48,034 bases of DNA from a virus. The notes under the pieces were generated by a model. It saw nothing but the letters and a program-made list of their open reading frames with translations. It was not told the origin of the DNA and searched no databases. The stretch's first letter is position 1, and every line of letters begins with the position of its first letter. Shown piece by piece: positions 3,037 through 37,631 of this stretch. The stretch spans positions 1 through 48,034 of the IMG/VR virus record IMGVR_UViG_3300045012_000037; one strand, 5' to 3'. A program made the translations under genes and the position numbers.

Positions 3037-3160
3037 TTCAGATAAATGCAGCCATATAACCGGCCAGCAGCGGGACAAGTGCGAGGATTTCCAGTCTCGC
3101 AAGCGGCCTGACGACGTGCCTCCAATCTGCACAAACTGCTAGGAGGATGTCATTACGAGA

Positions 3161-3764: not shown

Positions 3765-3765
3765 T

Positions 3766-7114: not shown

Positions 7115-7130
7115 TGGTTTTCGTAGCGGA

Positions 7131-9028: not shown

Positions 9029-9049
9029 TTCGCGCGCAACGCACGGTCC
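9029..9049. promoter_or_regulatory. conserved late-arm motif copy 1 (ATTCGCGCGCAACGCACGGTC)
   Basis: In the 87-bp spacer between the gp16-like gene and the fiber gene. The core ends 35 nt upstream of the fiber ATG 9002 on the minus strand. Confidence 0.6.
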
Positions 9050-9089: not shown

Positions 9090-12000
9090 TTACTGCGGCA
9101 ACATGTTTTTCTGAATGATCTGGCCCTGCATGGTGCGGATAACATCATTACCGCTGCGGGCGACCTGGATCATCGAATAGTAGAGCTGATCAATTAATTG
9201 CCGCTTTTCTGCCGGCGGGACTTCTGGATTTTTATAGATGTCCTGCACCAGCTTGGAATGCTCGTTGAGCGTCTGAGCGACCGAATCCAGCCGCATGAAC
9301 ATCGACGGGCCGCCCATGTCCACGATGTGCTGGGTTGCCACCACGTCGCCATCCCTAGCCTTCGCCATGAAGGTCGTGAAATAGGACTTGTTCCGCTCGT
9401 AGTTGTCGTAGAAATCTTGGATCGATTGCGCGCTGGTCGACGGATAGCGGACGACAAAAGCCCTGATTATAGGGATGTCGGCGAGCGTCGCGGTTGGCTG
9501 CGGCGGATCGGGCAGGATGCCTTGCTTGCGCAGCGCTGTATCGGCCGCGGTCAGTGCATAATTGCCGAGCGTGCCGGTCCAGCCGCGGATATAGTTCTCC
9601 ATCAGGATCGGGCTGGTAATCGCCCGCGCAATGCCGCCCGAGGCAGACTGATCCATCTTCACATCGCTGATGCCGGGGAACGCGCCGACAATGCGGCCGA
9701 CCGCCTTAGTCAGCTCTGTTGTGTAAGGCGTGTACTGATATTCCGGCAGGAATTTCTCCTGTGCCGAAGGGATCAGTGTGCGGTTCGTAAAGGTCGAGCG
9801 ATTGGCGAATTGATCGACAATCGGCGCAGCCGCAGTCGGCACAAACTCCGGGCCAACCTGCGTCCAAAACTGCTTGAAAAAATCCTTGAACGCATCCGGC
9901 TTCTCGCCGACGTATTGGTCGAGCAGCCGTTCCGGCAGCGTCCCAAACACCATGCCCATTGCCCACGGCTTCGGGATACGAAACACGTGGTCCGGCGTCA
10001 TGACCAGCCAGAACATATCCTTTTGCCACTGCGGGATTTCAGCATAGCGTGGATCATCGTGATTGGCGGCCCACAGCGCCACAGACGGCACCGTAACGGC
10101 AGCGCCGATCTTGACCAGCGACGAGATCGGGTTGTCGCGGATCGCGCGCACCACGCGGTCGCTATCCTGCAGTTTGATATTGGCGAACGCGGTGATCAGA
10201 TTATAGGCCCGCATGTTGGCGCCCATGCGCGCGGCGTCGACTGCCGTGTCGCGCGAAACCCACGCGGCACGGATGGCCTTGTCGCGCAGATTGGTAGCCT
10301 CAGGCTCGGCACGATCGGCCGCGCGCATCGACTTCTTGAATGCCGCAAGGTGGCTGGCGTTCTCAGCGAATTGCGTGGCGGCACGCAGCGGGTCGAGTAC
10401 GAACTTGCCGATGGCCTGGAATGGCAATTTGCCAAGCGCCCCCGCCTTGTCCCACATCGAGGCTTCCGGGTCGGCCAGCACATTCCAGGCGCGGCCCGCG
10501 AGCCCGGTTTGGCCGGTCAGTTTACGCAAGTCCTCCTGCAGATAGCGCCGGTCGATCCCAACCGAGGAGATATTGCCGCCGCCGCCTTTGAGCCAATTCC
10601 AATAATCCTCGTCCTTCATGATCAGGCCGGCGAAGCCCTTGCCCATGTCGATCGGGCTGAATACGCCCTCCTTGAAGGTGGTCATGGCATAGAGCAAGTC
10701 GCGTAGGACGTGGCGGCCCCAGAATTCAGGGGTCGAGACGGCGCCGGCGCGCAGCGTCGAGGCCGGGAAGGCCAGTGCCCGCTCGAGCATGCTCATGCTC
10801 TGGGCGTCCAAACCCTTCATGGCGCGGGCGAGCTCGGGATCGACCGAATAGGTTTCCCGCTTGCCGTCCCGCAGGATCGAGATTTGGCCCTCGCGCTCAG
10901 GCTCGCTGGCCTGGGCGAGCGCTTGGGCCAATTCCTCAGGACGCCTCACGCCGGACTCAGCGAGGGTGTCCGCTATCGCCCCAGCGCGGGGCAGCTCAGG
11001 AAGGCGCTCGGCCGTAATGGCCGCCGGCGACTCTGGGAAGGCTTTGGCGCCCCCTTGTAGCATATCGACCAGCTTGGTTCCGACTACGTTCCGCTCGGCC
11101 ATTTCGACCATATGGAAGGTGTTGCGGACCACGCTTTCGACCGGGTCGACGATGTCGCGGGCCGATCCTTTGATGGCCTTGATCGGATTGTGGGCCTGCA
11201 GGGATGAGCCGCCGACCGCTGGCGCCCCCTCGTCCAGCCCCATGACGCGGGAAAACGGCACATACATCTTATTGGCGTCGACCATGGCCTTATAGCCGTT
11301 GGCCGAAAGTACCCCGGAATCGCGCAAATATGCGCCCACCCGATTCTGGTAGTCGACCAGATCGCGGAACGGCTTTTCGTACTTGTCGCGGCCTTCGGCT
11401 ACCACGGTGCGCGCGGCATCCAAGCCTGACGACACCAGCGGCGGCGCACTTGGCTGCTCGGGAAAATTGAACCCGCTTTCGACGCCCCTGCCCTCCAATT
11501 CGAGCGCGCGGGACGCCGTGGCATAAGCCCGAAAGCCGTTCAGATCCTTCGCCACCGGCCGCAGGATCGACTTGAGCGACGGGCCATTGTTCTCATAGGT
11601 GGCAAAGTCGAACGTGCCATTATTGAGGAAATGATCGGCCTTCCCAGCATACCCCGCCATCAGCCGGGCAAGCTGATAAGGATTATTTTCCGCAGTCAAA
11701 TCCGGCAGGTCGGCCTCCTTCACTGCCTTGGCGATCGGGAACAACTTGTCGATGAAGCCGGTATAGAGGCCGTCCCATGTCAGCGCGCGCTCGGGCGCCT
11801 TCTCGTCGATGCTGATCTTGGACAGGATTTGCTTTTCGGCGTCGCCGTAGGATGGTGGCCGCCCCGGCCCGCCCCCTGGCGGTTCTGGCGGAAGATTGCC
11901 TATACCGCCGCCTACCGCCTTTGCTTGAGAAGCAATTTCTTGAGGCAGGTTAAATTCTGCGCCAGTCGCGGCCCCAGCTTTTTGCTCATACTTTGACAGA

Positions 12001-15190: not shown

Positions 15191-15669
15191 CAGAATGTCC
15201 TACTGCCAGGAGCACCGGGTATAGCGCCTCCAATTCCTTTGAGGATCGAAGATGCTGCGCTTACGTCGCCGGATAGCAATGCATCGCTTGACGCCGAGCG
15301 CAGATAAGCCGCGTCGCTTTCGTCCTGCTGTGATTGAGCCAAGATGCTATCGACTTGGATATTCTTGCGCTCAGTTCCAATCTGTTCGGTGTAATCACGC
15401 ACCGCCGCGCCGGTCGGCGACGTTGGATCAGTGTGCGACGCAGCGCGAATAGCGTCTAATTGTCCTAATGTTATGGCTTGATTGCGCGTTAACTGCGCAT
15501 TGGTTTGCGTAGCTTTCAATTCGCCATACTGTGCAGCACGGTCTAGTTCTGCGGCCTTGTATTGATCGGCCGCAGATGTGCCCTTAGCGCTTTCCAGCGA
15601 ACCAAAGGCTGACAAGCCCATCGAGGCTAGCGACAGAGCGGATGATGCACCTCCTGATGGAACGCCCAT
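15190..15669 (-). CDS. small internal virion protein (gp14-like by position)
   Basis: 159 aa, A/S/G/Q-rich. 1-nt start/stop overlaps with both neighbours. Confidence 0.5.
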   Translation of the reverse strand: MGVPSGGASSALSLASMGLSAFGSLESAKGTSAADQYKAAELDRAAQYGELKATQTNAQLTRNQAITLGQLDAIRAASHTDPTSPTGAAVRDYTEQIGTERKNIQVDSILAQSQQDESDAAYLRSASSDALLSGDVSAASSILKGIGGAIPGAPGSRTF

Positions 15670-18593
15670 TAGATTGTACTTTCTAATCCAGCCTCATGAA
15701 TGACGATCGGTCCCGGCGTATCTTTGATAATCGAGACGCGAGGATCGAATGAGCGACCCAGCGGGCGTGTCCGCTGGGCTTCCTCTCGCAAGGGCGGCGG
15801 CTGTGTCGGATCATCGCCCTGGTTCCAGGCTGTCCACCGTCGAAAGTTCATGATGGTTCCTAACACTGGCGATCTCGGCCGAAGCGGCCCTGAGAATAAG
15901 CGCGCCATCAGGAAGCCGGTTGAATTGGAAACATAGACGGCAAAACGCGCCACCCGGCGCGGAAACATGCGTTGATGCACGCTCTGGCCAGGTTGAGCAT
16001 CTGGCACGAACGGCTCGAGCGTCGCCGTCCAAGGCTGACCGGCAACCAGTGTCGAGAGCGTCAGGTTCTCGCCGTCGTTATTCTGCGGAATGATGAAGCC
16101 GTTGGCATCGACACTGTACGTGCCCATCATACGGTAGCCCTGATCCATCAGCGTCACGGTGCTGCTTGGGCCAGGAAATACATAGAGCGGACCTTTGCCG
16201 CCTGGCGGCGCAAACGGCGCCGGCAGACTGTTCACCAAAAGCGCACTATCGAGATATTGTGTAGCATCTAGCTTCTCGACAACGCTGGTTCCGACGAGTG
16301 TAGCAGTCGGGTTTATCGTGACAGCAGCGCCGGCCGTACCAAGAGCACCGAGCCATGTCAGTTGATCGCCGTTGGTATTGGGACCGGGAGCATTGGTAGA
16401 TGTCCAAAAATTAATGCCCCCTACGCCAGTAAACGGATTGGCGGTAGGCGATCCATTCCACAATCCACCATTAACCTGAAACCAGGCCAGCGCATTTGTT
16501 GCGTCGAACACCACGCCAATGACAGCCGATGAGGTTGAGCCAAGATTAATACCTGTATCAGTAGCAACCGCAAGCAGCACCCAAATTTCTCCGGTGCCGT
16601 CGATGGCAATTCCATTCTTTCCCGAGGTAAGATCAATGACTACTATGCCATCGCCGGCGCCGGTAGCGAGGTTAACCGGCGCAGAGAAGTTGGCATTAGT
16701 TGTAAACGTAAGAAAATAAATCCCGTTAGTGTGGCTAATGGTAGTGATGCTCCCCGCCAGCGGATATCCGGTTCTGGTTATAGTGAGATTTCCGTTTGAA
16801 TAGGCGGTAGTCGATGTGAGGATAGCCGGATTCCAGGTTCCTCCCCACGAAGTATTGATTTGGCCGCCGTAACCCGTTGTAAAAATAACGTCACCACCCT
16901 GCGCAGAAACCCACGTCGGCTTGCCGACGCCATTCCAGGGTAGCCAGCCGATCTTGGGCTTACCATCAACTCCAACATCAAGTAGGCCGTTGCGGACCGC
17001 ATATTTGCCGATAATACAGTTTCCATTGGCCAACAAAATGTAGGCATACATTTCCTCGAACTGCCCCGGCGCGCTCGGCGCCGCAATAGCAATCGCGGGC
17101 GAGGCCGTGAACAGATGCGAGTGAAATTCCGATACGTTGTCGACAATGTAGGGTCGATAATACGCGCCCGGTGCCTGTACCGCGCCGACCTGCGTGCCGC
17201 CGGCCTTCATGTAGAGAATCGATTGCTGCGCCGGCTGCGGCCGCACGTTCGGCATGCTGCCTTGTTCGCTCAATAGATTAAACGCGACAGAGCCGGGCAC
17301 TAGCGGATTGGCTGGCGTGATCGGAATGTAATAGACGGCGTTGTCGCAGAAAACAAACTCAGATGATTCCATGCCGGGCTGCACAAACAGCACTTGCGAT
17401 TTGCCGGGCGCGAGTTCAAAGATCGCATTGGCAGGCAGCGCGGCAACGTAGAAATCGAGGAATAGCCCGATTGCCGACCATCCAATGCCGGACGGCACGG
17501 ACGGAAAGTTGTTTAATATAAGCCGGTTTTGATCGAAGGACACCGATGTCGGATAGCCACGAAACAGGTTCATTACCTCGTCGTCCCACAACGACACCGC
17601 AAACGGGCCGCCGGGTGGATTGCTCGTAAGAGTGATCGCATAACTCGGCCCGACTGCAACCTCATTTGCCGCAAATGCGATAACGTGGCCTCCGTCGTTT
17701 TGAATCAATTGCACATCTATGCCGGTGCCCCCGCCGACAAGGGCGGTTACAATTCCTTCTGCGCCGCTCGTTTCGCCGATGATCACATCGCCGACGCTGA
17801 CGACGCCGGTTACATTGGCTGCCACGCCCAATGCTTGACCGGGATAAAGCGGCTCCTCGACTGTCGCGGTGCCATATTGCGACGGGCCGGCTGTTGGTGT
17901 GGTAAAATTAGATAACGTAACCGCGGTAATCAAAATCTGCCGATTGATGAATCGCATTCTTGTGCCGATCATGCCAGAGACCAGAACCGGCGATGAAAAC
18001 GTAATGTCGATGTTTCCCGACGTGGCGCTCGGCAGCATGGTGATGTTCTGCGGCGAGATGCGATAGAACAGCGTGCGCTTCTGGCCGCCTGGCGTGATAG
18101 TTTCGGCGAAGGTCGTCAGCGTCCACGTCGAAGTTTGCGATACGCCGTCCCAAGCCAAAACTTGCGGCACATTCACCGGGGCATCGTCGCCGTAGCAGAT
18201 ATAGATTGCACGTTGCGAGCCGGCGGCAACGACAAAGGTGACGTTCTTGACCGTTGCCGTCGTCCACGGAATATTGGTCGAGCCATCGCCTTTGAGCGTC
18301 GAGGTAAAAACCTGCGTGCCGGCGGCGTTGTAAACGCTCAATGAGCCGGCGCCAAATACCAGAAAGAAGATATTGCCCGGCGACATTAGGACTTCTTCGA
18401 CGCGGCCGGCTGCGGGGAATAGCGCGCTGCGGCCCGGTCGATTGGTTGCGGCACCACTATTGAGAATGCGCCAGTTGGAAGCCTGCCGCGCGCCGATCTT
18501 CATCAGCGGGTTTTCGTCGGCACGCTTCATCGCCACATCGAGCTCGCCGCCCGAAAAGTCTCGCTGTGCGCCGGTGATCTTCGCAATTGCCAT
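15669..18593 (-). CDS. tail tubular protein B (T7 gp12-like nozzle) with internal SPRY-like insertion
   Basis: N-terminus ...FSGGELD...GARQASNWRILNSGAATNRPG parallels T7 gp12 (KGGISQQP...QVNGW...GLQKRPP). 974 aa. The insertion contains YSNGNLTITR...ALAWFQVNGGLWNG. Confidence 0.75.
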   Translation of the reverse strand: MAIAKITGAQRDFSGGELDVAMKRADENPLMKIGARQASNWRILNSGAATNRPGRSALFPAAGRVEEVLMSPGNIFFLVFGAGSLSVYNAAGTQVFTSTLKGDGSTNIPWTTATVKNVTFVVAAGSQRAIYICYGDDAPVNVPQVLAWDGVSQTSTWTLTTFAETITPGGQKRTLFYRISPQNITMLPSATSGNIDITFSSPVLVSGMIGTRMRFINRQILITAVTLSNFTTPTAGPSQYGTATVEEPLYPGQALGVAANVTGVVSVGDVIIGETSGAEGIVTALVGGGTGIDVQLIQNDGGHVIAFAANEVAVGPSYAITLTSNPPGGPFAVSLWDDEVMNLFRGYPTSVSFDQNRLILNNFPSVPSGIGWSAIGLFLDFYVAALPANAIFELAPGKSQVLFVQPGMESSEFVFCDNAVYYIPITPANPLVPGSVAFNLLSEQGSMPNVRPQPAQQSILYMKAGGTQVGAVQAPGAYYRPYIVDNVSEFHSHLFTASPAIAIAAPSAPGQFEEMYAYILLANGNCIIGKYAVRNGLLDVGVDGKPKIGWLPWNGVGKPTWVSAQGGDVIFTTGYGGQINTSWGGTWNPAILTSTTAYSNGNLTITRTGYPLAGSITTISHTNGIYFLTFTTNANFSAPVNLATGAGDGIVVIDLTSGKNGIAIDGTGEIWVLLAVATDTGINLGSTSSAVIGVVFDATNALAWFQVNGGLWNGSPTANPFTGVGGINFWTSTNAPGPNTNGDQLTWLGALGTAGAAVTINPTATLVGTSVVEKLDATQYLDSALLVNSLPAPFAPPGGKGPLYVFPGPSSTVTLMDQGYRMMGTYSVDANGFIIPQNNDGENLTLSTLVAGQPWTATLEPFVPDAQPGQSVHQRMFPRRVARFAVYVSNSTGFLMARLFSGPLRPRSPVLGTIMNFRRWTAWNQGDDPTQPPPLREEAQRTRPLGRSFDPRVSIIKDTPGPIVIHEAGLESTI

Positions 18594-18602
18594 GGGCTAT
18601 GC

Positions 18603-19349
18603 CTAGCCCGGAGGACCGCCTGGGCCGCCCCAACCGCCGATACCTGTCCGCGGCCATGGGCGGCGTATCAGGCGGGACGCGCTGATGCGCGGGTTGAAGA
18701 ACTGCCGTTTGGGCAATTGCTGGTCGTAGCGCGTGCGGGCCATTTGCAGCATGCGCTCGCCGGCCATCCACATCTTGTCGCCTTCGGCCGGATCCTCGTG
18801 CAGCCCGCGATAGATGCCGGACATGGTAAAGGACTGCAGGGCAAGGAGCAGCGTCGGCGTGCCGTTGGTGGAGTCGCACAGCGCCCCGGAATTGGAGATG
18901 TATTTGAGCGTGATGGCGGCCGGGATGGTCGGCGGGACGGTCACGGGCGGCGGGGGCGGGCCGCCAAGCGCATTGACCACAATCACAGGGCCGGTCGGCG
19001 TCCCCATGATACGGTAGAGCGTGAACTGATTGGTCTGGACGTTCTGCGGGTCCGTCGTATCCTGATTGATCTTGAGCCAGATGATATGCACGCAGTCGGC
19101 CGGGATTGGATAGGCTGTGTCGTAATCGGTATCCTGCGGCGGGGTCGGGCTCGGCTGCAGCGTCACAACCAGGGCGGCATAGCCCCAGCCGTGGCTTTCC
19201 ATGGCGAAGCCGAGGCCGCGGTCATAGGCCGGCGAGGCTACGTTCCACTCGTCCGAACCGTCATCGGCCACGTTGACGAAGTTGTCCCCGGTTGCAGCCA
19301 GGGCAGAGTTAATCAGGCTCAGCTTGTCGAGTGGCGCCGGGAATGCCAT
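18603..19349 (-). CDS. tail tubular protein A (T7 gp11-like adaptor)
   Basis: Directly upstream of the gp12-like gene. INSALAATGDNFVNVA parallels T7 gp11 NEMLSAVGESPVNTL. Confidence 0.65.
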   Translation of the reverse strand: MAFPAPLDKLSLINSALAATGDNFVNVADDGSDEWNVASPAYDRGLGFAMESHGWGYAALVVTLQPSPTPPQDTDYDTAYPIPADCVHIIWLKINQDTTDPQNVQTNQFTLYRIMGTPTGPVIVVNALGGPPPPPVTVPPTIPAAITLKYISNSGALCDSTNGTPTLLLALQSFTMSGIYRGLHEDPAEGDKMWMAGERMLQMARTRYDQQLPKRQFFNPRISASRLIRRPWPRTGIGGWGGPGGPPG

Positions 19350-19376
19350 GCTCGACGGTGCGCTGGGGTCGCCAAA

Positions 19377-19393
19377 GCGCGCAACGCACGGTC
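19377..19393. promoter_or_regulatory. conserved late-arm motif copy 2 (GCGCGCAACGCACGGTC)
   Basis: In the 58-bp divergent spacer between tubular A (ATG 19349) and the methyltransferase moron (ATG 19408). Confidence 0.6.
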
Positions 19394-19407
19394 AGGAAAG
19401 CCGCCAA

Positions 19408-20064
19408 ATGCTCAGAAGCGCCCTCAAAGCGATGATTCCCGAGCCCGTTCTAACGAAATTACGGAACGTCAAACTAGCATTCACGCCACATGATAAAATC
19501 TATAATGAACACTATTTTGAAGAAGAAGTTATAGATACCTCAAGTATCGGAGCGCCCATTATGTCCAGCACGCTCTACGATTGGAGGCGCCCAAAAACGG
19601 TCATCGACATTGGATGCGGAAGCGGGGCACTACTCGCTGCATTTCGCGAATTAGGCTGCGAGGTAGAGGGCTTTGAATACGCCAACGTAGGACTAGCCTA
19701 TTGCCGAGGTCGGAAAATACCCACGGAGAAATTCGACATTTCTGTCGATAGATTTCCTCAACGTCGAGCTGACCTGGTTGTAAGTTTCGAGGTTGCCGAA
19801 CACTTGGCGCCACGATACGCAGACCGATACGTTGAGCTGCTTTGTTCGATGTCAGCGGATATTGCCATGTCTGCTGCAACGCCAGGACAAGGCGGTACTG
19901 GGCATATCAACGAGCAGCCGCATTCATATTGGATCGAGAAGTTCAGGCAACGCGGCTACTTTTTCCTAGCCGATATTTCGCAGAAATTATCCCAGGAATG
20001 GTGCGACGCTAACATTGCATCGTGGTACTGCAATAACGTGATGGTCTTTTCTCCGCGATCTTAA
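19408..20064 (+). CDS. class I SAM-dependent methyltransferase (non-DNA type), opposite-strand moron
   Basis: Motif I VIDIGCGSGALLAAFRELGCEVEGFEY, then VVSFEVAEHL and GHINEQPHSYWIEKFRQRGY. GGAAAG lies 7 nt before ATG 19408. The track start at 19273 would overlap the tubular A gene. AT-richer than its surroundings. Confidence 0.75.
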   Translation: MLRSALKAMIPEPVLTKLRNVKLAFTPHDKIYNEHYFEEEVIDTSSIGAPIMSSTLYDWRRPKTVIDIGCGSGALLAAFRELGCEVEGFEYANVGLAYCRGRKIPTEKFDISVDRFPQRRADLVVSFEVAEHLAPRYADRYVELLCSMSADIAMSAATPGQGGTGHINEQPHSYWIEKFRQRGYFFLADISQKLSQEWCDANIASWYCNNVMVFSPRS

Positions 20065-22907
20065 GGTATGACCTCGATAATAAGTTGGTCAGCGGCAATC
20101 GAGAGCGGCACGGAGCTTACGCTCGAATAGGTATTGATGGGCGTACTCTGCACTTGCGGATCATACACATTCACAGTGGTCTCGGTGGCAGCTAACGTCA
20201 GGGTAGCCGAAGTGGTCGGCGGCGTCACGTCAGAGCCATTCCACACGCTGGGTTCGTTCCAGACGCAAATGAAAAAATGGCCGTTGGACTTCTGCAGCAA
20301 AAGAGCCTGAGCGCCGAAATTGTTAAGCGCATTTGAGTGCGCCGGGAATGGAGAGATAGAATAAGTAAGCGAGCCGGGCGTGAACGCGCCACCAGTATCG
20401 GTCAGAATGGTCACTAGGTTCTTGATCGAGGTCGCGGCAGTCTTGGGATTATTATTATAATCAAACAGCCCGTAGTGGTGGAAAGATACAGTATCTGAGC
20501 TGTTGGCTTCATCGATCAGCTCGTACATATAAGTATATTTCGACCCGACAACGACATACATATCGAACAGGTCGTTCAATTGCAGCAGTGATTGCGCCAG
20601 TTGCGAAATGCCGCCTGTGGCGGGCACCGTGTAATAACCAGTCTCGGTCACTGCTTGCGGCAGACCGGCAATATCGCTTGCGGGGCCGGCGACCCAACCC
20701 GGCTGCTCGCCCTGATTGGGGTAGTAATGCTGATTGTTGTAGTCGGCAGTACCGGTGACACCGTATGATGGAAAGTCGGTGAAGTTAATCACCGGGACGC
20801 CGGTCAGATGCGAGTCACCATGGGTCTTGTTATAAATGTCCTGCTGCCAAGCGATAGCGGGCGCTGGATTGTTGTAGAAAGCTATGAATCGCGTCGCATC
20901 GCCGTTGCCAACGCCGGCCCCCTGGACGTTCGACGCCATCGTGACAGAGGTTGAGGCGATGGTGCTTAAGGTGGTGACCGGCGCGATCGGAAACACTGCG
21001 CCAGAGGTCAGCACCACGGCGTCAGCAATCCCCGCCTGCGCTGTGCCGACCGTGTTTGGCCCCAACGGAACCGAAAGGCTGCTTTGTGTGCTGGTAAACG
21101 GTTGAATCTCGACCAGATCGCCATCGTTGCCCCAGAGATTAGAGACAAAATCGCCTGTCACACCAGCAATGGTGCCAGCAACGGACACGAAGTTCTGAGC
21201 AGCCTGTGAACTATTGTTGCCCGTCTGCCGATAGCACCCGATGACAACCGTATTGGCGTGGGTCGTCGTAATCGTCAGCGGATCGGAAGTGCCGGTAACT
21301 GCACTGCCGTCGAAAGCGCCCGTGCTTCCGATCACACCGAAAGCATCAATGACCAGTGACGCGCTCGAAGTCTGCGAAACCGTAATGGTATCAGTTCGTG
21401 GATAGGAGCCACCGACTGGTCCCGTCGCGGTCCATTCCTCAAGATCGGTTGCTCCCGATGACGCGCTGGCCCGCTTTGCCCAACTTAAACTCTGGGTGTC
21501 CGTAATAGTAGTGACGGGTCCGCCGCTCGCCGCTGTGCAGATCAGCAATTTTTCGGCACTATTGTTGATCGTAAGTACAACATTCTGCGATGTAGCAGGA
21601 GAGGACGCCGCAGCGTGAGCATTGCCGGAATCAATGATAGTCGGTAGCAGCGTCAGGTCAGAGACTATTACCTGATTGACAAAGAATGGCGCATAAGACT
21701 GACAGCACGCATTGATCGCTTGCAACGCCGGAAGCGTCGAGGCGTAGTGCAGGGTAGCATTGCCAGAGGCAGTTGTGTTGTTCGTGACCGGCGAATTGAC
21801 GTAGCAGGACGGATTGTTGTTCAGCTCGTTGATGCCTTCGGCCGACGCCATCGCGCCGGGGTAAGTCGTAACAAAGGTGTCAATCAAGCCGTAAAGCGTA
21901 GTCAGTGTCGCAGCCGGACTTGGTGAGCAACCGCCAACGTGCTGTGATGCGATGTCAAAATCGAACTTATATCCCGCCGCCGCCAGGGTGTTGTAAACTG
22001 ACTGAGCTGGGTTGAGTGTGTCCAACCCATAGTCTCGGATCAGGCCGATCCCGAGATAGGCCATATCGGTCTGTATATTCGCTTCCGTGTAGATTGGATT
22101 GCCCTGAGTGATGTGCGTATTTGCACCCAGAGAAGCAATGAATGGCTGTGCCTTGACGGCGTTCGGATTGAATACATAAGGCTGATTGCCGCCGCCGTTG
22201 CCGGGGTTGGTCCAATTGGCAAACCCCGATGGAGCAACATCGGCATATGCCGTTGCGCCAAAATTTGCTGTTAATTGAACGCCCGAGATATTGTGAACGG
22301 AGGCCATGACAAAATATGGCCCGGCATTAAGTGCCGCAATCGACACGCCACACCCTGCATTAGCCGGCGTACAACCGCCCGTATTATTCCAGTTACCGCC
22401 ATGAACGCGAAACCATGCCAGCTTGTTAGTCAGGTCAACAGCCAGACCGGCCGTTTGACCGACCGTCATGGTCTGCTGCGCAGGGCCAACTTGAGCAGAA
22501 TTAAGAACGATACCACCACTATCGTACTCGCCAATACTGTTGTTTGAATCAACGCCCAATTCCTCGGCGGCATTGGCATTGCCGATACCAAAAATGACCT
22601 GACTAGTGCAACCGGAGACGCAACTGCCAATCGAGTTAAAGGTGAATTCGTTGTAGAACTGTCCTGTTAAGTTATTTGCCACCGAGCGGGTGACAAAATA
22701 TCCGGGGTTGCCGCTGCCTAGTGACGTTGAAGTAAGATTTCCGTTGGAAAGAACTGTCAGCGGGTCAGTTTGGCTAGGATCGAAGGTTGTTGTTACTGTG
22801 CCACTGGGTATTTTGCCGTGATCCCAGCCACACAGAAGGACCAGTGCAATGGAACCGATTGCGATATTTTTGCTTAACAAGCGGCCGGAGTGGAATGGAA
22901 ATATCAC
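20061..22907 (-). CDS. large exported/anchored protein: SPRY-like lectin domain plus possible TIM-barrel glycosidase region plus beta-rich C-terminus
   Basis: GTGA start/stop overlap at 22904-22907. N-terminus MIFPFHSGRLLSKNIAIGSIALVLLCG. SPRY pattern LSNGNLTSTS...GQFYNEFTF...LAVDLTNKLAWFRVHGGNWNN...LTANFGATAY. The later AEGINELNN is a clan GH-A-like NE motif (weak). Confidence 0.75.
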   Translation of the reverse strand: MIFPFHSGRLLSKNIAIGSIALVLLCGWDHGKIPSGTVTTTFDPSQTDPLTVLSNGNLTSTSLGSGNPGYFVTRSVANNLTGQFYNEFTFNSIGSCVSGCTSQVIFGIGNANAAEELGVDSNNSIGEYDSGGIVLNSAQVGPAQQTMTVGQTAGLAVDLTNKLAWFRVHGGNWNNTGGCTPANAGCGVSIAALNAGPYFVMASVHNISGVQLTANFGATAYADVAPSGFANWTNPGNGGGNQPYVFNPNAVKAQPFIASLGANTHITQGNPIYTEANIQTDMAYLGIGLIRDYGLDTLNPAQSVYNTLAAAGYKFDFDIASQHVGGCSPSPAATLTTLYGLIDTFVTTYPGAMASAEGINELNNNPSCYVNSPVTNNTTASGNATLHYASTLPALQAINACCQSYAPFFVNQVIVSDLTLLPTIIDSGNAHAAASSPATSQNVVLTINNSAEKLLICTAASGGPVTTITDTQSLSWAKRASASSGATDLEEWTATGPVGGSYPRTDTITVSQTSSASLVIDAFGVIGSTGAFDGSAVTGTSDPLTITTTHANTVVIGCYRQTGNNSSQAAQNFVSVAGTIAGVTGDFVSNLWGNDGDLVEIQPFTSTQSSLSVPLGPNTVGTAQAGIADAVVLTSGAVFPIAPVTTLSTIASTSVTMASNVQGAGVGNGDATRFIAFYNNPAPAIAWQQDIYNKTHGDSHLTGVPVINFTDFPSYGVTGTADYNNQHYYPNQGEQPGWVAGPASDIAGLPQAVTETGYYTVPATGGISQLAQSLLQLNDLFDMYVVVGSKYTYMYELIDEANSSDTVSFHHYGLFDYNNNPKTAATSIKNLVTILTDTGGAFTPGSLTYSISPFPAHSNALNNFGAQALLLQKSNGHFFICVWNEPSVWNGSDVTPPTTSATLTLAATETTVNVYDPQVQSTPINTYSSVSSVPLSIAADQLIIEVIP

Positions 22908-23779
22908 GTCCACACTCCGATGTAGTCCCATGATACGGGAATGCCGTCTCCTGGTGACATTATCAACATACTATGATTCGCGTCTGATGCCGCCCCATTG
23001 CTGCCAGTCGCATAGCTAAGAGCAGCGCCGGTCTGTTCCGCCCCATCGAGGTAACGCTTTATAACGCCATTCGTGGCGCCATTGGCCGGCAACCAGAGCG
23101 CTCCATACTTGTGAAAATTTGAATCTGAAATTCCGGTAATATTCCCGTTATTAAGCACCGAGGTCGTTGCCGAATTGAAAAAATGATCCTCCATTATTTG
23201 CGACTGACCTAGGTAATATTCATAACCATCGACCTCAACTAGAGAGGCGGCTCCGATTAAACTTTCGATCGCCAATAGCCACACGATAGGCCACGCAGAA
23301 GCGTCGGCATTGCTCGGCGTAAATGCCATACTCCATTCGACATACATCGGCGGCGTAAAGCCTTGTCCGACGTAAGACGATCCCGCGGCCTGGGCCGTCT
23401 GGACAAACAATTCGGATGTCGCACCAGTGCTATTGCTTAATGTAACTACCGAGTTGCTGACGCTTATGCTTGCTGGATTAGTGCTATGACCGGAAGTTGG
23501 AATTAGCGGCGCGGACCCCCCGTACGGATTCATTATATTCGGCCATGCATTATTCAGATACCAGTTGTAGCCCGGGTTGCCGGTCTTGCTTAGATCAAAG
23601 GTATTGCTCGTCAAAAAGTGGTCGAAAAACACGATTGTGGATAACCCGTTAGCTGCGGCAATGGCTGGGATCGGAAGAATGCCATGTGAAAATGCATTTG
23701 CTGGGCTCACACCGCTACGAGGCAACCACAATGCGGGAGCGGCCAAACTCGCACGAAGAAGATTTCTTCGAGTGATCAC
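22904..23779 (-). CDS. GH16-like (ConA-fold) glycoside hydrolase with twin-arginine signal peptide
   Basis: GTG start abutting the upstream stop. Signal MITRRNLLRASLAAPALWLPRSGVSPANA/F. WPIVWLL and EVDGYE match the GH16 WPAFWxL and ExDxxE signatures. Confidence 0.7.
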   Translation of the reverse strand: MITRRNLLRASLAAPALWLPRSGVSPANAFSHGILPIPAIAAANGLSTIVFFDHFLTSNTFDLSKTGNPGYNWYLNNAWPNIMNPYGGSAPLIPTSGHSTNPASISVSNSVVTLSNSTGATSELFVQTAQAAGSSYVGQGFTPPMYVEWSMAFTPSNADASAWPIVWLLAIESLIGAASLVEVDGYEYYLGQSQIMEDHFFNSATTSVLNNGNITGISDSNFHKYGALWLPANGATNGVIKRYLDGAEQTGAALSYATGSNGAASDANHSMLIMSPGDGIPVSWDYIGVWT

Positions 23780-24469
23780 TTACCAATTTCCAAATCCAGC
23801 GGGGGCTGCATAGGTATAAGAGGTTGCGCCAAAGTTTGCCGTTATGGAGGCGACGGCGTTGTGAATGCAGGCGGCGGCGAAATATGGGGCCGAGCCCGCA
23901 GAAGAAATTGATACGCCGCCGGCCCCCGTTGCCGGATTTGCTGTGCCGCTACCGTTCCAATTGCCGCCATTCTTTCTTATCCACACCAACCCTCCACCAA
24001 TATCGAGCGCCTGATCTATCACGTCGCCGTTGGTAAAAGTAGCATCAGTAAGGAGCGAGACGTTGTTGATGTATCCGTGTGAGTCGTCCCAATAGCCGAA
24101 ACCATTAATATCGACGCCGCCAAGAAACACATTAAGAGACTCTGATGAATTTACAAAACCAATGCCGTTGGAGTAAGAGGCAAAGCCGTTGCTGGTGTTA
24201 ATCAAAAAAGAAGCAAATAACTTTCCAGTAGAATGCGATGTGATAGAGCGAGAAAAACTATAGGTCCCAGAGCCGTTGGCTGTAATAGTTAAGTTTCCAC
24301 CAGACAGTGTAATGGTATTTCCAGTGTTGGACGGATCGAATGTCGTAGTACCGCCGCCGCCACTAGGCGCTACGATCGAACTGCCGACGCCGGTCTGCGT
24401 CAGGTCTTGTGCGTGCAGGACACACAGCAGCCCAACCAGAAACAGGCCAGCGGCAATCACCCGCTGCAT
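23780..24469 (-). CDS. secreted SPRY-like lectin-domain protein
   Basis: Signal MQRVIAAGLFLVGLLCVLHA/Q. LSGGNLTITANG...GKLFASFLIN...GLVWIRKNGGNWNGSGTANP...ITANFGATSYTYAAPAGFGNW, paralogous to the N-domain of 20061-22907. Confidence 0.75.
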   Translation of the reverse strand: MQRVIAAGLFLVGLLCVLHAQDLTQTGVGSSIVAPSGGGGTTTFDPSNTGNTITLSGGNLTITANGSGTYSFSRSITSHSTGKLFASFLINTSNGFASYSNGIGFVNSSESLNVFLGGVDINGFGYWDDSHGYINNVSLLTDATFTNGDVIDQALDIGGGLVWIRKNGGNWNGSGTANPATGAGGVSISSAGSAPYFAAACIHNAVASITANFGATSYTYAAPAGFGNW

Positions 24470-25302
24470 CAGTTATATCCGAATGTGCAGTTGATCGTGT
24501 TCGTTGCCGGTGCGGCCGCCCCCTTTGGCGTCGTGGTAGCCGCCGCACTCATCGCCGTGCCAAACTGCATGCCCTGCAGGTTCATCACAAAGCCGTTCGA
24601 CAGGCTTGGGGCGATCGGGATGACTTGCAGCGGCACCGTGGTTCCAACCGTGACCGACCCAAACGCCACGTTGAAAATCTGAATGTAGGTCCAGGCGGCA
24701 TTGTTGTTGTCGCATTGTGCGAAGCCGAGTTGACCGCCCGACGACTTGATCGCCTGTGCCGCATTGGTCAGAGCCGTTACCAACAGCGGCGTCCAGCCGC
24801 CTGTTGTGCCGAGTGGCGGCGGGCTGTTAATTGCGTTTGCCGCGGCCTTGGCGATCGCGGTCAACGTACAGGCTGTCGCAGTAGCCGGCAATGTGCAGGG
24901 CGAATCTGTTGTCGATCCCTCAACCGTGTTGGAGCCGTTGGCGATAGAGATTGCCGCTGTGTTTGTGATGAATACATTGGCGCCTGGAACGAGTACGGCC
25001 CCAGGTGACGTGCCGTAATTTGCCATCGCTCCGAGCGTGCCACCAGCCCATGTCGTATTCCAAAGCGCGGCAGAAGCCGGATCGACAAGTTGACCATGCG
25101 ACGTGTCGACACCGGCGCCGTTTGCGCCGGCCGAATAATCCCAGATCGTATTTTTGCCCAGGCAATTGCCGCTGCCGTCGACCACAGTGCCGATATTCTG
25201 AGATGTGCCGCCCGCATCCTTGCCAGTGATTGGCGAAGGACAAGCGGCAAATGCCGGCCAGCAAAGCAGCGTGAAGCCGAGCGCAAGGAGAATGCGCCTC
25301 AT
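24469..25302 (-). CDS. secreted or lipoprotein-type T/G/A/N-rich protein
   Basis: ATGA overlap with the upstream stop. MRRILLALGFTLLCWPAFAA/CPSP is a possible lipobox or an AxA site. Six Cys after the hydrophobic core. Confidence 0.7.
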   Translation of the reverse strand: MRRILLALGFTLLCWPAFAACPSPITGKDAGGTSQNIGTVVDGSGNCLGKNTIWDYSAGANGAGVDTSHGQLVDPASAALWNTTWAGGTLGAMANYGTSPGAVLVPGANVFITNTAAISIANGSNTVEGSTTDSPCTLPATATACTLTAIAKAAANAINSPPPLGTTGGWTPLLVTALTNAAQAIKSSGGQLGFAQCDNNNAAWTYIQIFNVAFGSVTVGTTVPLQVIPIAPSLSNGFVMNLQGMQFGTAMSAAATTTPKGAAAPATNTINCTFGYN

Positions 25303-25511
25303 GGAATTACTCCATTGATGAATTGCGGCATGTTGCAGCCGGTGGAGAGAGACAGATCGATTGCCCCTGCAGTGCATGGCGTGCCGACGATGACCGTCCC
25401 GCCGCCGCCGGACCCGCCGCCGATGCCCTGATTGCCGCCGATCGATTGTGCGAGTGCATGCGCTGTCCAGACTGACGCGGCAAACAATGCGAATGCGATG
25501 GCCCAGTTCAT
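25299..25511 (-). CDS. 70-aa secreted Gly-rich peptide precursor
   Basis: MNWAIAFALFAASVWTAHA/LAQSIGGNQGIGGGSGGGGTVIVGTPCTAGAIDLSLSTGCNMPQFINGVIP, with two Cys. Confidence 0.65.
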   Translation of the reverse strand: MNWAIAFALFAASVWTAHALAQSIGGNQGIGGGSGGGGTVIVGTPCTAGAIDLSLSTGCNMPQFINGVIP

Positions 25512-25512
25512 G

Positions 25513-26007
25513 TCAATTCTGATGCGTTTGTACAGTCGTTTCCAGATTGACCGCCGTGCAGGTTCCTGCCGTCATGGCAAATGCCACATAATCGCCGGCG
25601 GTGATCGCAGCCGAGTTGACCGTGCCGTCGACTACGGTTCCGGCTGCAGCAACGGTCACAGTTCCGATTGTGACGGGGCTCGATGCGCAAGTTGTCGACG
25701 TGCCGCACTCGAACACCGTTATGGTTGGATTGACCGAACACGTAAACGTGTTGGCGCTGCCCTCGATGTTGTCGACAGTCGTCGCCTTGCTGAATTTGTG
25801 AAACGCGCTTTTCGTGGCATTGATCGCCGTGATCGGACCGGTCTGAAAGCCGATGTGGTCGGTGGCGTTGTTGGCAATCGTTCCGCCCGAGCAGGTCAGA
25901 CCGGCGCCGCAGCCGAACAGGGCGCCATTGGAAATGCCGTCCGCAGCCAGCGGAGTGACCAAAGCCAGCAATGCGAGTGGGGCGATAATCCTACTGATAA
26001 TCTGCAT
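25513..26007 (-). CDS. secreted Cys-containing beta-rich protein
   Basis: Internal ATG 26007 of track ORF 25513-26160. MQIISRIIAPLALLALVTPLAA/DG. Six Cys in the mature part. Confidence 0.65.
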   Translation of the reverse strand: MQIISRIIAPLALLALVTPLAADGISNGALFGCGAGLTCSGGTIANNATDHIGFQTGPITAINATKSAFHKFSKATTVDNIEGSANTFTCSVNPTITVFECGTSTTCASSPVTIGTVTVAAAGTVVDGTVNSAAITAGDYVAFAMTAGTCTAVNLETTVQTHQN

Positions 26008-26368
26008 ACATCGTGTCCGAATTTGAGGCGCACGTCGCCTGGATGACATCGGACGGAACGTATGGGTAATAGCGCTGGTAGCTGCCGCCCGGAGACAACA
26101 AAATGGATGTTGCCTTTGTCGCGCTGCCAGATCCGATGAACAGCCAGCAATTGTCGCCATTGGTATTGTTGTTCTGGATAGTCAGCGAGCGCCTGATAGC
26201 CGGCGGCGCGGCAACAGCACTGAGTATGTTCTGATATGTGTTGCCGGTCGTGATCGTAACTGAGCCATTGATGGTTGGCGTATTGGTCTGCGCGTTCGCG
26301 ACAGGCGCAAAGAAAAGCGCTGCGGCGATAACCGCAGCGCGAGTTAGCCATGATCGATTCGCAATCAC
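25991..26368 (-). CDS. secreted beta-rich protein
   Basis: GTG 26368 preceded by GGTGGA and located after the stop of the upstream gene. (M)IANRSWLTRAAVIAAALFFAPVANA/QT. Two Cys. Confidence 0.6.
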   Translation of the reverse strand: MIANRSWLTRAAVIAAALFFAPVANAQTNTPTINGSVTITTGNTYQNILSAVAAPPAIRRSLTIQNNNTNGDNCWLFIGSGSATKATSILLSPGGSYQRYYPYVPSDVIQATCASNSDTMYADYQ

Positions 26369-26388
26369 AGCGGGAGGTTCCACCTGGC

Positions 26389-27006
26389 TTAGAAGTACGA
26401 GTAGATTATCGTGATATTGATCGAGCCCGAATTGCACGCGGTATGGCACGCGACAAGCACCTGATCCGCAATCGGCGCACCGCCATTGACTTGCAGCCGC
26501 GTCAGCGACGCATCCTTCACGACAACAGTTGCGTTGGCGCCGAGCGCGACCGCCGAGGCAAAAGTCGTGGCCGACGTGGCATCGCCGATGTCGACGCCGC
26601 CAGTGATGGCGTTGCCTGCCGTCTCGGCAAGCACAACGTTCTGAATGACCGTATTGGCCGGCAGCGTGATCGTCGATGTCGTTGACGTGGTTGACGCCAG
26701 GATGCCGGTCTGGATCAGCGTGAAGATATTTGGGCCGTAGAAGTAGCCTTGCGACAGGAAGTAGCCGACATCGCCGGAAGCGATAACCGCACAGCCATCA
26801 GCGTTGAGCTGATAGGCGGGCTGAGGCGTAGCCGTAGACGCCGAGTTGACAACACGCCTCGGTCCAGCGACGCCGGATGCTGGCTTAGGCGCGCACAAGA
26901 AGGCGTGAGCGGTCTGGGTCGACGCCGCCGCATAAGCGCCCTGCGGCACGATGAAGAAGGCGGCAATCGCTGCGGCGAGCAGGAATTGCGGAAGGCGAAA
27001 CTTCAT
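26389..27006 (-). CDS. secreted protein, possible small outer-membrane beta-barrel
   Basis: MKFRLPQFLLAAAIAAFFIVPQGAYA/A. Four Cys. C-terminus SINITIIYSYF has alternating hydrophobics and a terminal Phe (BAM beta-signal-like). Confidence 0.7.
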   Translation of the reverse strand: MKFRLPQFLLAAAIAAFFIVPQGAYAAASTQTAHAFLCAPKPASGVAGPRRVVNSASTATPQPAYQLNADGCAVIASGDVGYFLSQGYFYGPNIFTLIQTGILASTTSTTSTITLPANTVIQNVVLAETAGNAITGGVDIGDATSATTFASAVALGANATVVVKDASLTRLQVNGGAPIADQVLVACHTACNSGSINITIIYSYF

Positions 27007-28524: not shown

Positions 28525-29478
28525 TTAGGCGACGATCGGCGCGTTAGTCCACGAGTCCATGCGGCCGAGACAATACTTGTGCTCGTCCACCAAACCGATG
28601 TCCCAACTGATATGCGTGCGATAGGTCTTGCGGTCCTGCAGCAAGCCAACATCTTCCGGCGTCAGGTTGCGGACATAGATGCCGCGCAACATGCCCTCGC
28701 CCATGGTCAGGCCGTAGAGCGACGCGGTGACGGCCGAGCCGCCGCCGTTGCCGACCTCGTTGAATTGCAGCACCGGCTGCTGGTCGTCCTTCGGATAGCC
28801 CCAGAGCAAACGAAGCCCGGCATAGCTGATCTTCGGCATGCCGACCTCATCCCAGGTCTGCATCACGAAGCCACTCAAGGTCGTGGTGCGCGCCGCCTGA
28901 ATCCACAGCGGCAGCGAAATGAACGGCACGAAGATGTAGGTGGTACCGGACTTGCGCGAGATGTTGTTGAGGAACTGATCGAGATTGGCGAGCGAAAGCG
29001 CAGCGCCGCCAGATGTCGTCGAGTTGTGATAGAGCCGGCCGAACTTGCGGGCCCGGACTTGCAGGCCGTTGAACACGCGCGGATTGGTCGATTGGTCGCC
29101 CTTGACGAAAGTGTCGATCCACAGCCGCGCAAAGGCGGTGATGCCCATGCGTTCCTCGTAATTGCGCCGCTCCGAGCCGTGCCGATCCTGAATGGCGCGG
29201 TCCACGTCGATGTCGTGGTCGATGATGTAGGTCGCCTCGTCGAACGGCGTGATCGAGCCGTGGCCGCTTGAGGATGCTTCGTTGATGCCGCGGAACTGCG
29301 GCGTCGGCAGCACGGACTCGCGGAAGCCGACATATTTGGAACCGCGCAAGCCTTCAAAGGGCATGACCTCGAAAACGTCACTGTACTGCGTGAACATTTC
29401 GATGATGGTGCGTCGGATGTCCTCATTCGAGAACCCCTTGGCGTATTCGGTCAGGGTAATCAGATTGTTGACAGCCAT
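28525..29478 (-). CDS. major capsid protein
   Basis: 317 aa, follows the scaffold gene in portal-scaffold-capsid order. GAAGGG RBS. The long antisense ORF 28516-29271 is rejected. Confidence 0.7.
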   Translation of the reverse strand: MAVNNLITLTEYAKGFSNEDIRRTIIEMFTQYSDVFEVMPFEGLRGSKYVGFRESVLPTPQFRGINEASSSGHGSITPFDEATYIIDHDIDVDRAIQDRHGSERRNYEERMGITAFARLWIDTFVKGDQSTNPRVFNGLQVRARKFGRLYHNSTTSGGAALSLANLDQFLNNISRKSGTTYIFVPFISLPLWIQAARTTTLSGFVMQTWDEVGMPKISYAGLRLLWGYPKDDQQPVLQFNEVGNGGGSAVTASLYGLTMGEGMLRGIYVRNLTPEDVGLLQDRKTYRTHISWDIGLVDEHKYCLGRMDSWTNAPIVA

Positions 29479-30749: not shown

Positions 30750-30960
30750 TGTCAGCTATTCCCTTGCCCATGTGGGCCATCAGATCGGCCGCGAAACTGC
30801 GGCGACCCTCATTCGCGCGCAACGCACGTCCCGGCATGTTGGGCGTGGTGACCCCCAACCTGACCTTCTGCAAGTAGCGATAAAGAAGCTGGCCATCGGC
30901 GGTACGCGCGATGCGATCCATGACCTGCGTGATGTCGTCCGATGTGATTTCTTCGGTCAT
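30595..30960 (-). CDS. small protein downstream of portal
   Basis: 121-aa ORF. ATGA overlap with the portal stop. ...DGQLLYRYLQKV...RALRANEGRRSFAADLMAHMG looks protein-like. The 3-prime 155 nt overlap the scaffold ORF. Confidence 0.55.
   Translation of the reverse strand: MTEEITSDDITQVMDRIARTADGQLLYRYLQKVRLGVTTPNMPGRALRANEGRRSFAADLMAHMGKGIADSDRYAVTFAIAEPVDTRTHPRGARRRVTLDTAIAGWDTDANSGSGTSGSTN
30811..30831. promoter_or_regulatory. conserved late-arm motif copy 3 (ATTCGCGCGCAACGCACGTCC)
   Basis: 18-nt exact match to copy 1. 70 nt upstream of the scaffold GTG 30749, inside ORF 30595-30960. Confidence 0.55.
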
Positions 30961-32800: not shown

Positions 32801-33212
32801 CTAGGCGCGTGCCGCCATTTTGCATCAGATGGCGGTATAGGCCGCTAGGCGTCATTCGGGCGCAACGCACGCCTAGAAGGTGCTTGATGGCGGGCACGCA
32901 ATAAAAACCAATGCGCGATGACCAGCTCATCGGCTGATGTTGCCGGGTAAACATCACCACTTCGCAATCGGCCATGTACTTGAGCAATGTTGCCTTGGCT
33001 GTCGGCCCGGCGGCCAGCAACATGAGCCGCGTACCACTTAGCTGCGTGTCATAGACCAGCCAGGCGCGAAAGCCGGGGCAATAAGCGAATGCCGAAACGT
33101 GCTTGAAGCGGCCGCAAGCCAACATACGAAGCCATAGGCCAGGCGTCCTAGTATGGAAAACGACGTTCCATACTGTCGGTTCGATGGCATCAGGAAGATG
33201 GATTTCGTCCAT
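32751..33212 (-). CDS. hypothetical protein between terminase and portal
   Basis: Internal ATG 33212 of track ORF 32751-33269. Product MDEIHLPDAIEPTVWNVVFHTRTPGLW... Confidence 0.55.
   Translation of the reverse strand: MDEIHLPDAIEPTVWNVVFHTRTPGLWLRMLACGRFKHVSAFAYCPGFRAWLVYDTQLSGTRLMLLAAGPTAKATLLKYMADCEVVMFTRQHQPMSWSSRIGFYCVPAIKHLLGVRCARMTPSGLYRHLMQNGGTRLDDTIHAPNPHRSQPPD
32854..32873. promoter_or_regulatory. conserved late-arm motif copy 4 (ATTCGGGCGCAACGCACGCC)
   Basis: 17 of 18 identical to copies 1 and 3. Bracketed by the inverted 7-mers CGCTAGG/CCTAGAA-like CTAGGCG...CGCCTAG on the minus strand. 62 nt upstream of ATG 32800. Confidence 0.5.
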
Positions 33213-37296: not shown

Positions 37297-37305
37297 TGTG
37301 TCACG

Positions 37306-37506
37306 CTATGGGATGTGCTGGCCTTTGCAACGCACGGTCTCGGCTATTTGCTGCATTTCGGCTTTTGACATTGGCTTGATGATCTCGGCTTTTAAGAGCC
37401 TGTGCAGTCTGGCGTTACGCTTGGCAACCTTTGGATTGAACTTGAACGGCATCCAGCGTTTGCCGGATGTGGAGAACGTCGAGCCTGTACCTCGCAGCTT
37501 GTCCAT
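37306..37506 (-). CDS. small basic protein
   Basis: 66-aa ORF. First ORF after the 335-bp gene-poor gap. Confidence 0.45.
   Translation of the reverse strand: MDKLRGTGSTFSTSGKRWMPFKFNPKVAKRNARLHRLLKAEIIKPMSKAEMQQIAETVRCKGQHIP
37327..37339. promoter_or_regulatory. conserved late-arm motif copy 5 (GCAACGCACGGTC)
   Basis: The core ends 31 nt upstream of ATG 37296 of the TerS-like gene. Confidence 0.5.
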
Positions 37507-37631
37507 GCGTCACGCTGGCGCCTTCGCTTACGCTCCGTTGCCGGTCCTCGCATCCGCTGCGGATGGTCGGCTATCGCCGGCCTTTTCTCGTTTGTCTCTC
37601 CTCGCGCGATAACATGCCTGTCAACTCTCGC

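Follow-up and report, generated by a model that had tools for sequence, protein, structure and literature searches.

The methyltransferase gene and its product

The 48,034-nucleotide virus sequence IMGVR_UViG_3300045012_000037 (the window, by which we mean this whole stretch) contains a plus-strand gene at positions 19408 to 20064 that encodes a class I S-adenosylmethionine (SAM)-dependent methyltransferase of 218 amino acids. It is flanked by two minus-strand genes, the conserved core gene for tail tubular protein A (tubA; 18603 to 19349; phrog_394 at 2e-12) and g956 (20061 to 22931), which encodes a SPRY-domain protein of 956 residues (948 as called in a public contig). A preliminary description, made from the sequence alone, had placed a 218-residue plus-strand reading frame between an exported 948-residue protein and tubA, as we also find. 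Its start of 19350 is the base directly after the tubA start codon; the N termini in an alignment of 39 homologues favor ATG 19408 over an upstream TTG or ATG, and AGGAAA at 19394 to 19399, 8 nt 5' of that ATG, resembles a ribosome-binding site. The gene had also been called the only plus-strand gene of its surroundings, which holds for all open reading frames (ORFs) with family support or GC3 (GC at third codon positions) support in the late block, approximately 3.3 to 35.4 kb, whereas a few small plus-strand ORFs in the early region (37163 to 37612 and 39515 to 39829) may be further genes.

The product is a soluble class I SAM-dependent methyltransferase. Pfam Methyltransf_23 matches at E=1.2e-12 and 48.4 bits against a cut-off of 27, Methyltransf_11 and Methyltransf_25 also score above their cut-offs, and the protein contains VIDIGCGSGALLAAF, VVSFEVAEHL, and GHINEQPHSYWIEKFRQRGY, with the class I motif I (D/E-x-G-x-G-x-G) present as VIDIGCGSG. 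The [DNS]PP[YFW] motif of DNA methyltransferases is absent from all 218 residues, and no DNA-methyltransferase family matched in Pfam, PHROGs, or NCBIfam. The class, the quoted motifs, and the lack of DPPY/NPPY given in the preliminary description therefore all stand, and none of the Pfam, PHROGs, NCBIfam, PDB profile, and Foldseek tests identified the protein as a nucleic-acid methyltransferase, which would have spoken for a different kind of gene.

An AlphaFold2 (AF2) model built on a 40-sequence alignment (pLDDT, 91.3; pTM, 0.86) has the alternating strands and helices of a Rossmann methyltransferase fold. Foldseek returned 958 PDB matches at E<=0.001, and all 50 of those listed are class I SAM methyltransferases or TehB; the best TM-scores were to the sugar N,N-dimethyltransferase TylM1 (0.62 to 0.65) and bacterial Hen1 (0.58 to 0.64), and no neighbor of specific function emerged from the PDB or from viral models. 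A PDB profile search with the family gave CalS10 (1.7e-8), UbiG, Hen1, and CFA synthase as its best matches. Both signatures of the family, EVAEH and AATPGQGGxxHxNEQPHSYW, are found in the window protein, which keeps 23 of the 23 family-invariant residues. The family profile matches bacterial Hen1 at 2.4e-7 over positions 52 to 163, and E128, E131, H132, H166, and N168, invariant in the family alignment, would suggest a Hen1-like metal site if they correspond to the E-x-x-E-H...H residues with which Hen1-type 2'-O-methyltransferases bind metal.

At its 3' end the gene converges on g956. The plus-strand TAA (20062 to 20064) and the minus-strand stop codon (20061 to 20063) have TTAA in common and lie in the palindrome CTTAAG (20060 to 20065); as had been described, there is no terminator at this junction, where a terminator scan had no match and folding gave z values of -0.3 and +0.3 relative to shuffled sequence. 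The C terminus of g956 (...EVIP) is intact, so that the methyltransferase gene abuts g956 exactly. At its 5' end a divergent spacer of 58 bp (19350 to 19407) separates it from the tubA start. This spacer does contain the copy of a late motif that had been noted there, a 17-mer at 19377 to 19393, and a consensus scan tuned to Escherichia coli-type signals found no sigma-70-like promoter in it. Neither promoter nor terminator was detected for the methyltransferase gene, the independent expression of which is therefore putative.

The gene has 49.2% GC and 50.7% GC3, compared with 64.9% GC and 81.9% GC3 in tubA and 57.1% GC in the whole window, and so deviates in base composition as a moron would; GC falls to 33% in the stretch 19495 to 19560. 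The suggestion that it is AT-richer than its neighbors is correct with respect to tubA and the window, but low GC is not confined to this gene. It extends over all of 19350 to 24469 (52.7% GC as a whole), with 53.8%, 50.9%, and 51.7% GC in g956, g291, and g229, respectively.

Homologues in glycan-biosynthesis loci

Searching 5.8 billion proteins yielded 461 homologues of the methyltransferase, those aligned having 39 to 63% identity over 86 to 100% of the length. The best non-self match is bacterial, and the two closest homologues (63% and 60% identity) are carried by bacterial contigs of 356 kb and 124 kb. We sampled nine bacterial homologues on long contigs for gene context, and eight of them, including the closest two, lie in glycan-biosynthesis loci. 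P0002 (63% identity) is accompanied by GT2, GT9, epimerases, UDP-glucose dehydrogenase, and a flippase, and P0003 (60%) by the same kinds of genes together with GtrA, PMT_2, and DUF1919. P0020 and P0027 (50 to 51%) lie near GT4 and GT2 genes, with Wzy_C at the P0020 locus only. Around the two homologues with 49% identity in such loci are GT2 and GT9 genes with either a polysaccharide deacetylase (P0038) or Methyltransf_24 (P0035); P0060 (51%) adjoins a Wzm/Wzt ABC transporter with Wzt_C and more methyltransferases, and P0037 (48%) is found with Bac_transf, GT1, ManC, and a flippase. The ninth, P0022 (49%), lies outside glycan loci and has hydantoinase and dehydrogenase genes nearby.

More distant homologues on viral contigs (35 to 39% identity) also lie among sugar-related genes, namely GT2, GT25, GT4, and TOD1-type transferases and a PglD-like acetyltransferase. 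The preliminary statement that such methyltransferases are common in polysaccharide clusters is thus borne out by eight of nine bacterial contexts and by the viral glycosyltransferase contexts. The window copy stands alone in a phage; no glycosyltransferase was found among the window ORFs in the family scans made.

Two further observations concern these contexts. On three IMG/VR contigs of 38 to 46% GC (L047 to L049), the distant homologues form part of co-directional arrays of glycosyltransferases, a PglD-like acetyltransferase, and other methyltransferases, which may be phage-encoded glycan pathways; the arrays of L048 and L049 adjoin genes of 1077 to 1135 codons. A small ORF 5' of the methyltransferase was considered and dismissed, since its conservation is confined to the loci L001 and L003 and neither L131 nor the window has it.

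A variable slot upstream of tubA

To place the gene among related phages, IMG/VR and GTDB genomes were searched with tubA, which gave 42 loci (41 distinct contigs) with tubA identities of 31 to 80%, and 14 window proteins were run against these loci by tblastn. The related loci keep the order capsid, g248 (in some), g167, g205, a gap, tubA, tubular protein B (tubB), internal virion protein (IVP), and SLT, an internal protein with a lytic transglycosylase domain. The gap between g205 and tubA ranges from approximately 100 bp (L024, L025, L026, and L033) to approximately 8 kb (L032). No tblastn match to the methyltransferase (E<=1e-5) was found in the 42 fetched loci keeping g205 and tubA. The window genes g215, g302, g229, and g956 likewise have no match in the slots of the related loci, and g291 has a single weak partial match, at 32% identity, in L040. 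Outside the window, the methyltransferase gene itself occurs only on a 100% identical 16-kb contig (L004) from the same phage, and a search of GenBank phage DNA with 17000 to 23000 returned no match.

The methyltransferase gene is a lineage-specific insertion in a hypervariable slot, cargo and not core, because it is absent from the related loci and its best non-self match is only 63% identical and bacterial. The check in related phages that the preliminary description had proposed thus came out in favor of its moron reading: the flanking genes are kept, the methyltransferase is missing from 41 of 41 distinct loci, its composition is atypical, and its nearest relatives are bacterial.

In the window this cargo and host-recognition slot, delimited by comparison with relatives, extends from tubA to g205 (26389 to 27006), that is, over 19350 to 26388, and the relatives carry other genes in it. 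Directly upstream of tubA and on the opposite strand, L028 has a gene for a 183-residue hexapeptide O-acetyltransferase (6694 to 7245, minus strand; Hexapep, 7e-12), whose best NCBIfam matches are EpsC, CysE, NeuD, and WcaB and which is arranged as in the window, pointing away from tubA across the motif and toward the large gene that precedes it. At the same position L042 has a BTLCP (Peptidase_C93) peptidase with a signal peptide (9344 to 9859, minus strand). Wzy_C-like (O-antigen ligase family) membrane proteins occur in the slots of L009 (8521 to 9684, plus strand) and L042 (5586 to 6740, plus strand), with 34.9 and 31.2 bits, respectively, against a cut-off of 31.7. Taken together, these genes suggest that the slot between g205 and tubA has received surface-modifying cargo repeatedly. 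In L042, a repeated hairpin-like CCCTCCTAACAGGG stands on both sides of the BTLCP cargo gene (9150 to 10000) and may be a duplicated terminator that marks an insertion.

The motif in the divergent spacer belongs to tubA. The 17-mer GCGCGCAACGCACGGTC is on the minus strand, with its core CGTGCGTTGC at 19390 to 19381, 31 nt before the tubA ATG, and is one of five copies in the window, all on the minus strand and each upstream of a minus-strand gene. The 17-mer recurs at 9032, about 30815, about 32860, and 37327, and the five cores lie at 9036 to 9045, 19381 to 19390, 30819 to 30828, 32862 to 32871, and 37327 to 37336. In at least 28 of the 41 loci examined, the 9-mer GTGCGTTGC is found approximately 30 to 33 nt 5' of the tubA ATG, and it is invariant in 24 aligned distinct relatives, whether the slot is empty or full, at tubA identities of only 31 to 80%. 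A semi-conserved CAC(C/G)GT follows 5 to 7 nt before the ATG, and in L025, L026, L027, L030, and L041 a hairpin and T-run, read by eye, directly precede the motif. Several copies look hairpin-like by eye as well, and an RNA hairpin was considered for the motif and rejected, as RNAalifold predicts no consensus pairs on 25 sequences. Because no common hairpin was found, we read the GTGCGTTGC element not as an RNA structure but as a probable late promoter or activator site, the leaders of which may be very short. If so, a separate late unit begins at tubA, and the slot forms a natural boundary at which cargo does no harm. That the methyltransferase gene splits a late operon, as had been proposed, is therefore not supported: tubA has the promoter-like motif in most relatives with or without cargo, and in some a terminator-like hairpin precedes it, which places the gene at a boundary between late units. 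Antisense interference with late transcription had been offered as another possible role, and we found no evidence for it.

On the other side of the gene, g956 has an N-terminal hydrophobic segment and SPRY-type N-terminal repeats, and Pfam SPRY is present in homologues of the protein. The last 650 residues of g956 are found again, at 86% and 54% identity, on two further phage contigs, where the homologues P0122 and P0123 lie just before the lysis genes and have no accompanying methyltransferase. Residues 682 to 946 also match, at 30% identity (8e-27), a 436-residue protein that has a signal peptide but matches no Pfam family, encoded at 2497 to 3807 (plus strand) of L001; this bacterial glycan locus also contains the closest methyltransferase homologue, approximately 6 kb away, and the phage and host-locus modules may have a common origin. 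A reading of g956 as a clan GH-A glycanase was set aside after the AF2 model of residues 245 to 956 failed (pLDDT, 38.7) and no Pfam or PDB match was found; the lead that remains consists of a resemblance to the NE...ETG motif and the 30% match to the signal-peptide protein.

Several features of the other slot proteins are recorded here. A SPRY/lectin-like domain (GGNWNG...ANFGAT...FxNW) occurs in both g229 and g956, where a 62-nt DNA repeat (22212 to 22273 and 23783 to 23844) is 74% identical, and it can be recognized by eye toward the C terminus of tubB as well, a protein to which relatives align over residues 1 to 575 only, the last approximately 400 residues being lineage specific. Many slot proteins begin with signal-peptide-like segments (g956, g291, g229, and g302 at 20061 to 25377 of the window, and proteins of L021, L029, L032, L034, L037, and L040), which are odd for genes within a virion structural module; g291 has a Tat-like TRRNLL, and a lipobox-like ...LLCGW is common to g956 and an L029 protein.

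The rest of the genome gives the setting. The window represents a circularly closed, complete genome of 47,907 bp, because positions 1 to 127 are repeated exactly at 47908 to 48034. On the minus strand lie, in order of transcription, the genes for the terminase large subunit (33345 to 34850), portal (30957 to 32585), and major capsid protein (28525 to 29478), followed by the small conserved genes g248, g167, and g205 (named, like the others, by residue length), a group of four or five genes without a family (g215, g302, g229, g291, and g956), tubA, tubB (15669 to 18593), IVP, SLT, and, last in this order, a 1329-residue protein and a fiber-like protein. The early region has a small REase_MTES_1575/DUF559-like gene (40478 to 40960, minus strand), and near the right end are a plus-strand XRE-type helix-turn-helix gene and a Dam-like DNA adenine methyltransferase gene (44287 to 45183, plus strand; phrog_56 at 2.5e-60); neither the DUF559-like nor the Dam-like gene is related to the methyltransferase gene of the slot. 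A divergent tyrosine-integrase-like gene occupies 46529 to 47902 on the plus strand, with a match to phrog_1 at 1.7e-9, C-terminal R...H...Y residues recognized by eye, and no match in Pfam, NCBIfam, or PDB. A temperate lifestyle is supported by this integrase-like gene and by relatives embedded in a Bradyrhizobium contig of 98 kb and in a Xanthobacteraceae metagenome-assembled genome; the phage is podovirus-like and of a soil type. Among cultured phages, clear similarity was seen only to Microcystis phage Mwe-JY08 (PP395640.1; capsid, 47.6% identity; tubB, 32.6%), the nearest by protein, which is too remote to be informative and whose stated cyanobacterial host contrasts with the Bradyrhizobium and Xanthobacteraceae prophage relatives.

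A possible role in surface modification

Because the relatives of the enzyme elsewhere lie in surface-sugar gene clusters, we probably have here an ordinary moron, by means of which the prophage could alter the surface polysaccharide of its host. Our preferred reading, at a probability of roughly 0.55, is that it is a horizontally acquired lysogenic-conversion moron whose product O-methylates the surface polysaccharide of the host; from the evidence above we infer the substrate, the lysogen-specific expression, and the effect on adsorption. In a lysogen, with the late genes silent, plus-strand transcription would express the gene, and the enzyme would methylate a sugar hydroxyl of the O-antigen, exopolysaccharide (EPS), or capsular polysaccharide (CPS) at a cytoplasmic stage of assembly, the target being either a repeat-unit sugar or the terminal residue of the chain. 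The receptor used by phages of this type would thereby be altered, resulting in lysogenic conversion by which superinfecting phages are excluded. In the lytic cycle, strong transcription of the late genes would run through g956 antisense to the methyltransferase gene and silence it, and tubA would restart from its own conserved motif.

Several points weigh against this proposal. One of the nine sampled bacterial homologues (P0022) is outside any glycan cluster, and a soluble enzyme would be effective only in a host that makes a compatible glycan. Structure and sequence searches lead to generic small-molecule methyltransferases (TylM1, CalS10, UbiG, and Hen1), chiefly over the SAM-binding half, and the conserved C-terminal half has no match among solved structures. 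The consensus scans, which look for E. coli-type signals, and the folding of the junction give the gene neither a promoter nor a terminator, and the glycanase reading of the adjoining g956 stays at the level of motif resemblance (model pLDDT, 39; no Pfam or PDB match).

The enzyme might instead act on a small molecule, a lipid, or RNA in the manner of UbiG, CFA synthase, or Hen1, as a metabolic or RNA-modifying accessory gene. The best PDB sequence matches (CalS10, UbiG, Hen1, and CFA synthase) include enzymes of these kinds, weak matches to Tam, MetW, and UbiG in NCBIfam and to a PHROGs tRNA methyltransferase (4e-6) point the same way, and P0022 lies among hydantoinase and dehydrogenase genes; however, these matches fall far under family cut-offs and cover chiefly the common SAM-binding half, and with glycan clusters in eight of nine bacterial contexts and in the viral ones we consider such a substrate unlikely. 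A role as part of a modification-based defense or counter-defense system would find its support in a PADLOC match to mad2 (2e-6), but that match is limited to residues 58 to 133, partner genes and DNA-methyltransferase motifs are both absent, and the homologues are in glycan clusters, not in defense islands. Because PADLOC gave only this weak match to the SAM domain, we reject a defense role as very improbable.

The position of the gene suggests two further explanations. Lying within the structural and host-recognition region next to g956, and having distant viral homologues in glycosyltransferase clusters beside proteins of approximately 1100 residues, the enzyme could serve the lytic cycle by methylating glycans or residues of virion proteins, for example the adjoining SPRY-domain proteins. 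This is improbable, as the gene is on the strand opposite to all late genes and converges on g956 without a terminator, no glycosyltransferase was found in the scans made of window ORFs, and neither the relatives nor the phages that have the g956 module carry the gene. Only slightly more credible, and still quite unlikely, is a functionless recent passenger, or a gene whose effect is mainly transcriptional through antisense transcription or collision with read-through from g956 to tubA. In its favor are the occurrence of the gene in a single phage lineage, the lack of a detected promoter or terminator, and the overlap of the convergent stops; yet the ORF is intact with all of its family-invariant residues, and intact enzymes in the same orientation recur in the slot. 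Insulation of tubA would also not be needed, because tubA has its own conserved upstream motif.

The categories of O-antigen modification by phages have been set out previously (PMC7380047), and the conversion proposed here can be compared with the well-known cases. Like P22 gtrABC, Sf6 oac, and the polymerase switches of epsilon15 and D3, the methyltransferase gene would be a temperate-phage accessory gene next to host-recognition genes; those morons are dispensable for lytic growth and alter the polysaccharide that the phage itself uses, and genes of related kinds, Wzy_C-like and acetyltransferase, are carried by the slot of the relatives. The chemistry differs, since we propose methylation by a soluble cytoplasmic SAM enzyme instead of glucosylation, membrane O-acetylation, or a change of linkage. 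Homology to GtrA, GtrB, GtrC, Acyl_transf_3, or O-antigen polymerase is absent, Pfam giving methyltransferase families only, and the resemblance to Gtr, Oac, and Wzy modules therefore appears from this comparison to be functional and positional, not by descent. Compared with classic lambdoid morons, the gene is likewise an extra one between conserved neighbors, absent from relatives and atypical in composition, but differs from them in that its own promoter and terminator were not detected.

Bacterial enzymes offer closer parallels in chemistry. WbdD of E. coli O8/O9a, which caps the chain terminus, and WbeT/RfbT of Vibrio cholerae, responsible for Ogawa methylation, are SAM-dependent O-polysaccharide methylases of the cytoplasmic side that alter serotype or chain length, and in O8/O9a-type systems Wzt_C reads the terminal cap. 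The homologue P0060 adjoins a transporter with Wzt_C, a likeness to these systems by description and not by sequence; unlike WbdD and WbeT, the window gene is phage-borne and stands alone. With the natural-product sugar methyltransferases TylM1, DesVI, CalS10, and TcaB9, which are its best structural and profile matches, the enzyme has the class I fold in common, the sugar substrates being theirs, but identity to the TylM1/CalS10 group is 13 to 18% and the C-terminal signature of the family matches no solved structure. All in all, we regard the gene as an ordinary kind of element with a plausible, unusual chemistry.

No phage-encoded O-antigen methyltransferase was found in the literature searched. 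Tentatively, and at somewhat less than even odds, this may be the first phage-borne surface-polysaccharide O-methyltransferase used for conversion, lodged in a dedicated, recurrent slot of a large uncultured family of temperate podoviruses of Bradyrhizobium/Xanthobacteraceae-type hosts that different lineages load with methyl, acetyl, or Wzy-type chemistries. If host O-antigen or EPS is indeed methylated, methylation would be added to glucosylation, acetylation, and linkage change as a way in which temperate phages rewrite the host surface. In the hosts, probably rhizobia-like soil bacteria, phage sensitivity and the interaction with plants both depend on surface polysaccharides. Possibly more useful than the gene itself is what the comparison defines, a fixed cargo slot and a conserved promoter-like motif across a large uncultured phage family, as the slot and motif together would provide a simple handle for finding more conversion genes in metagenomes.

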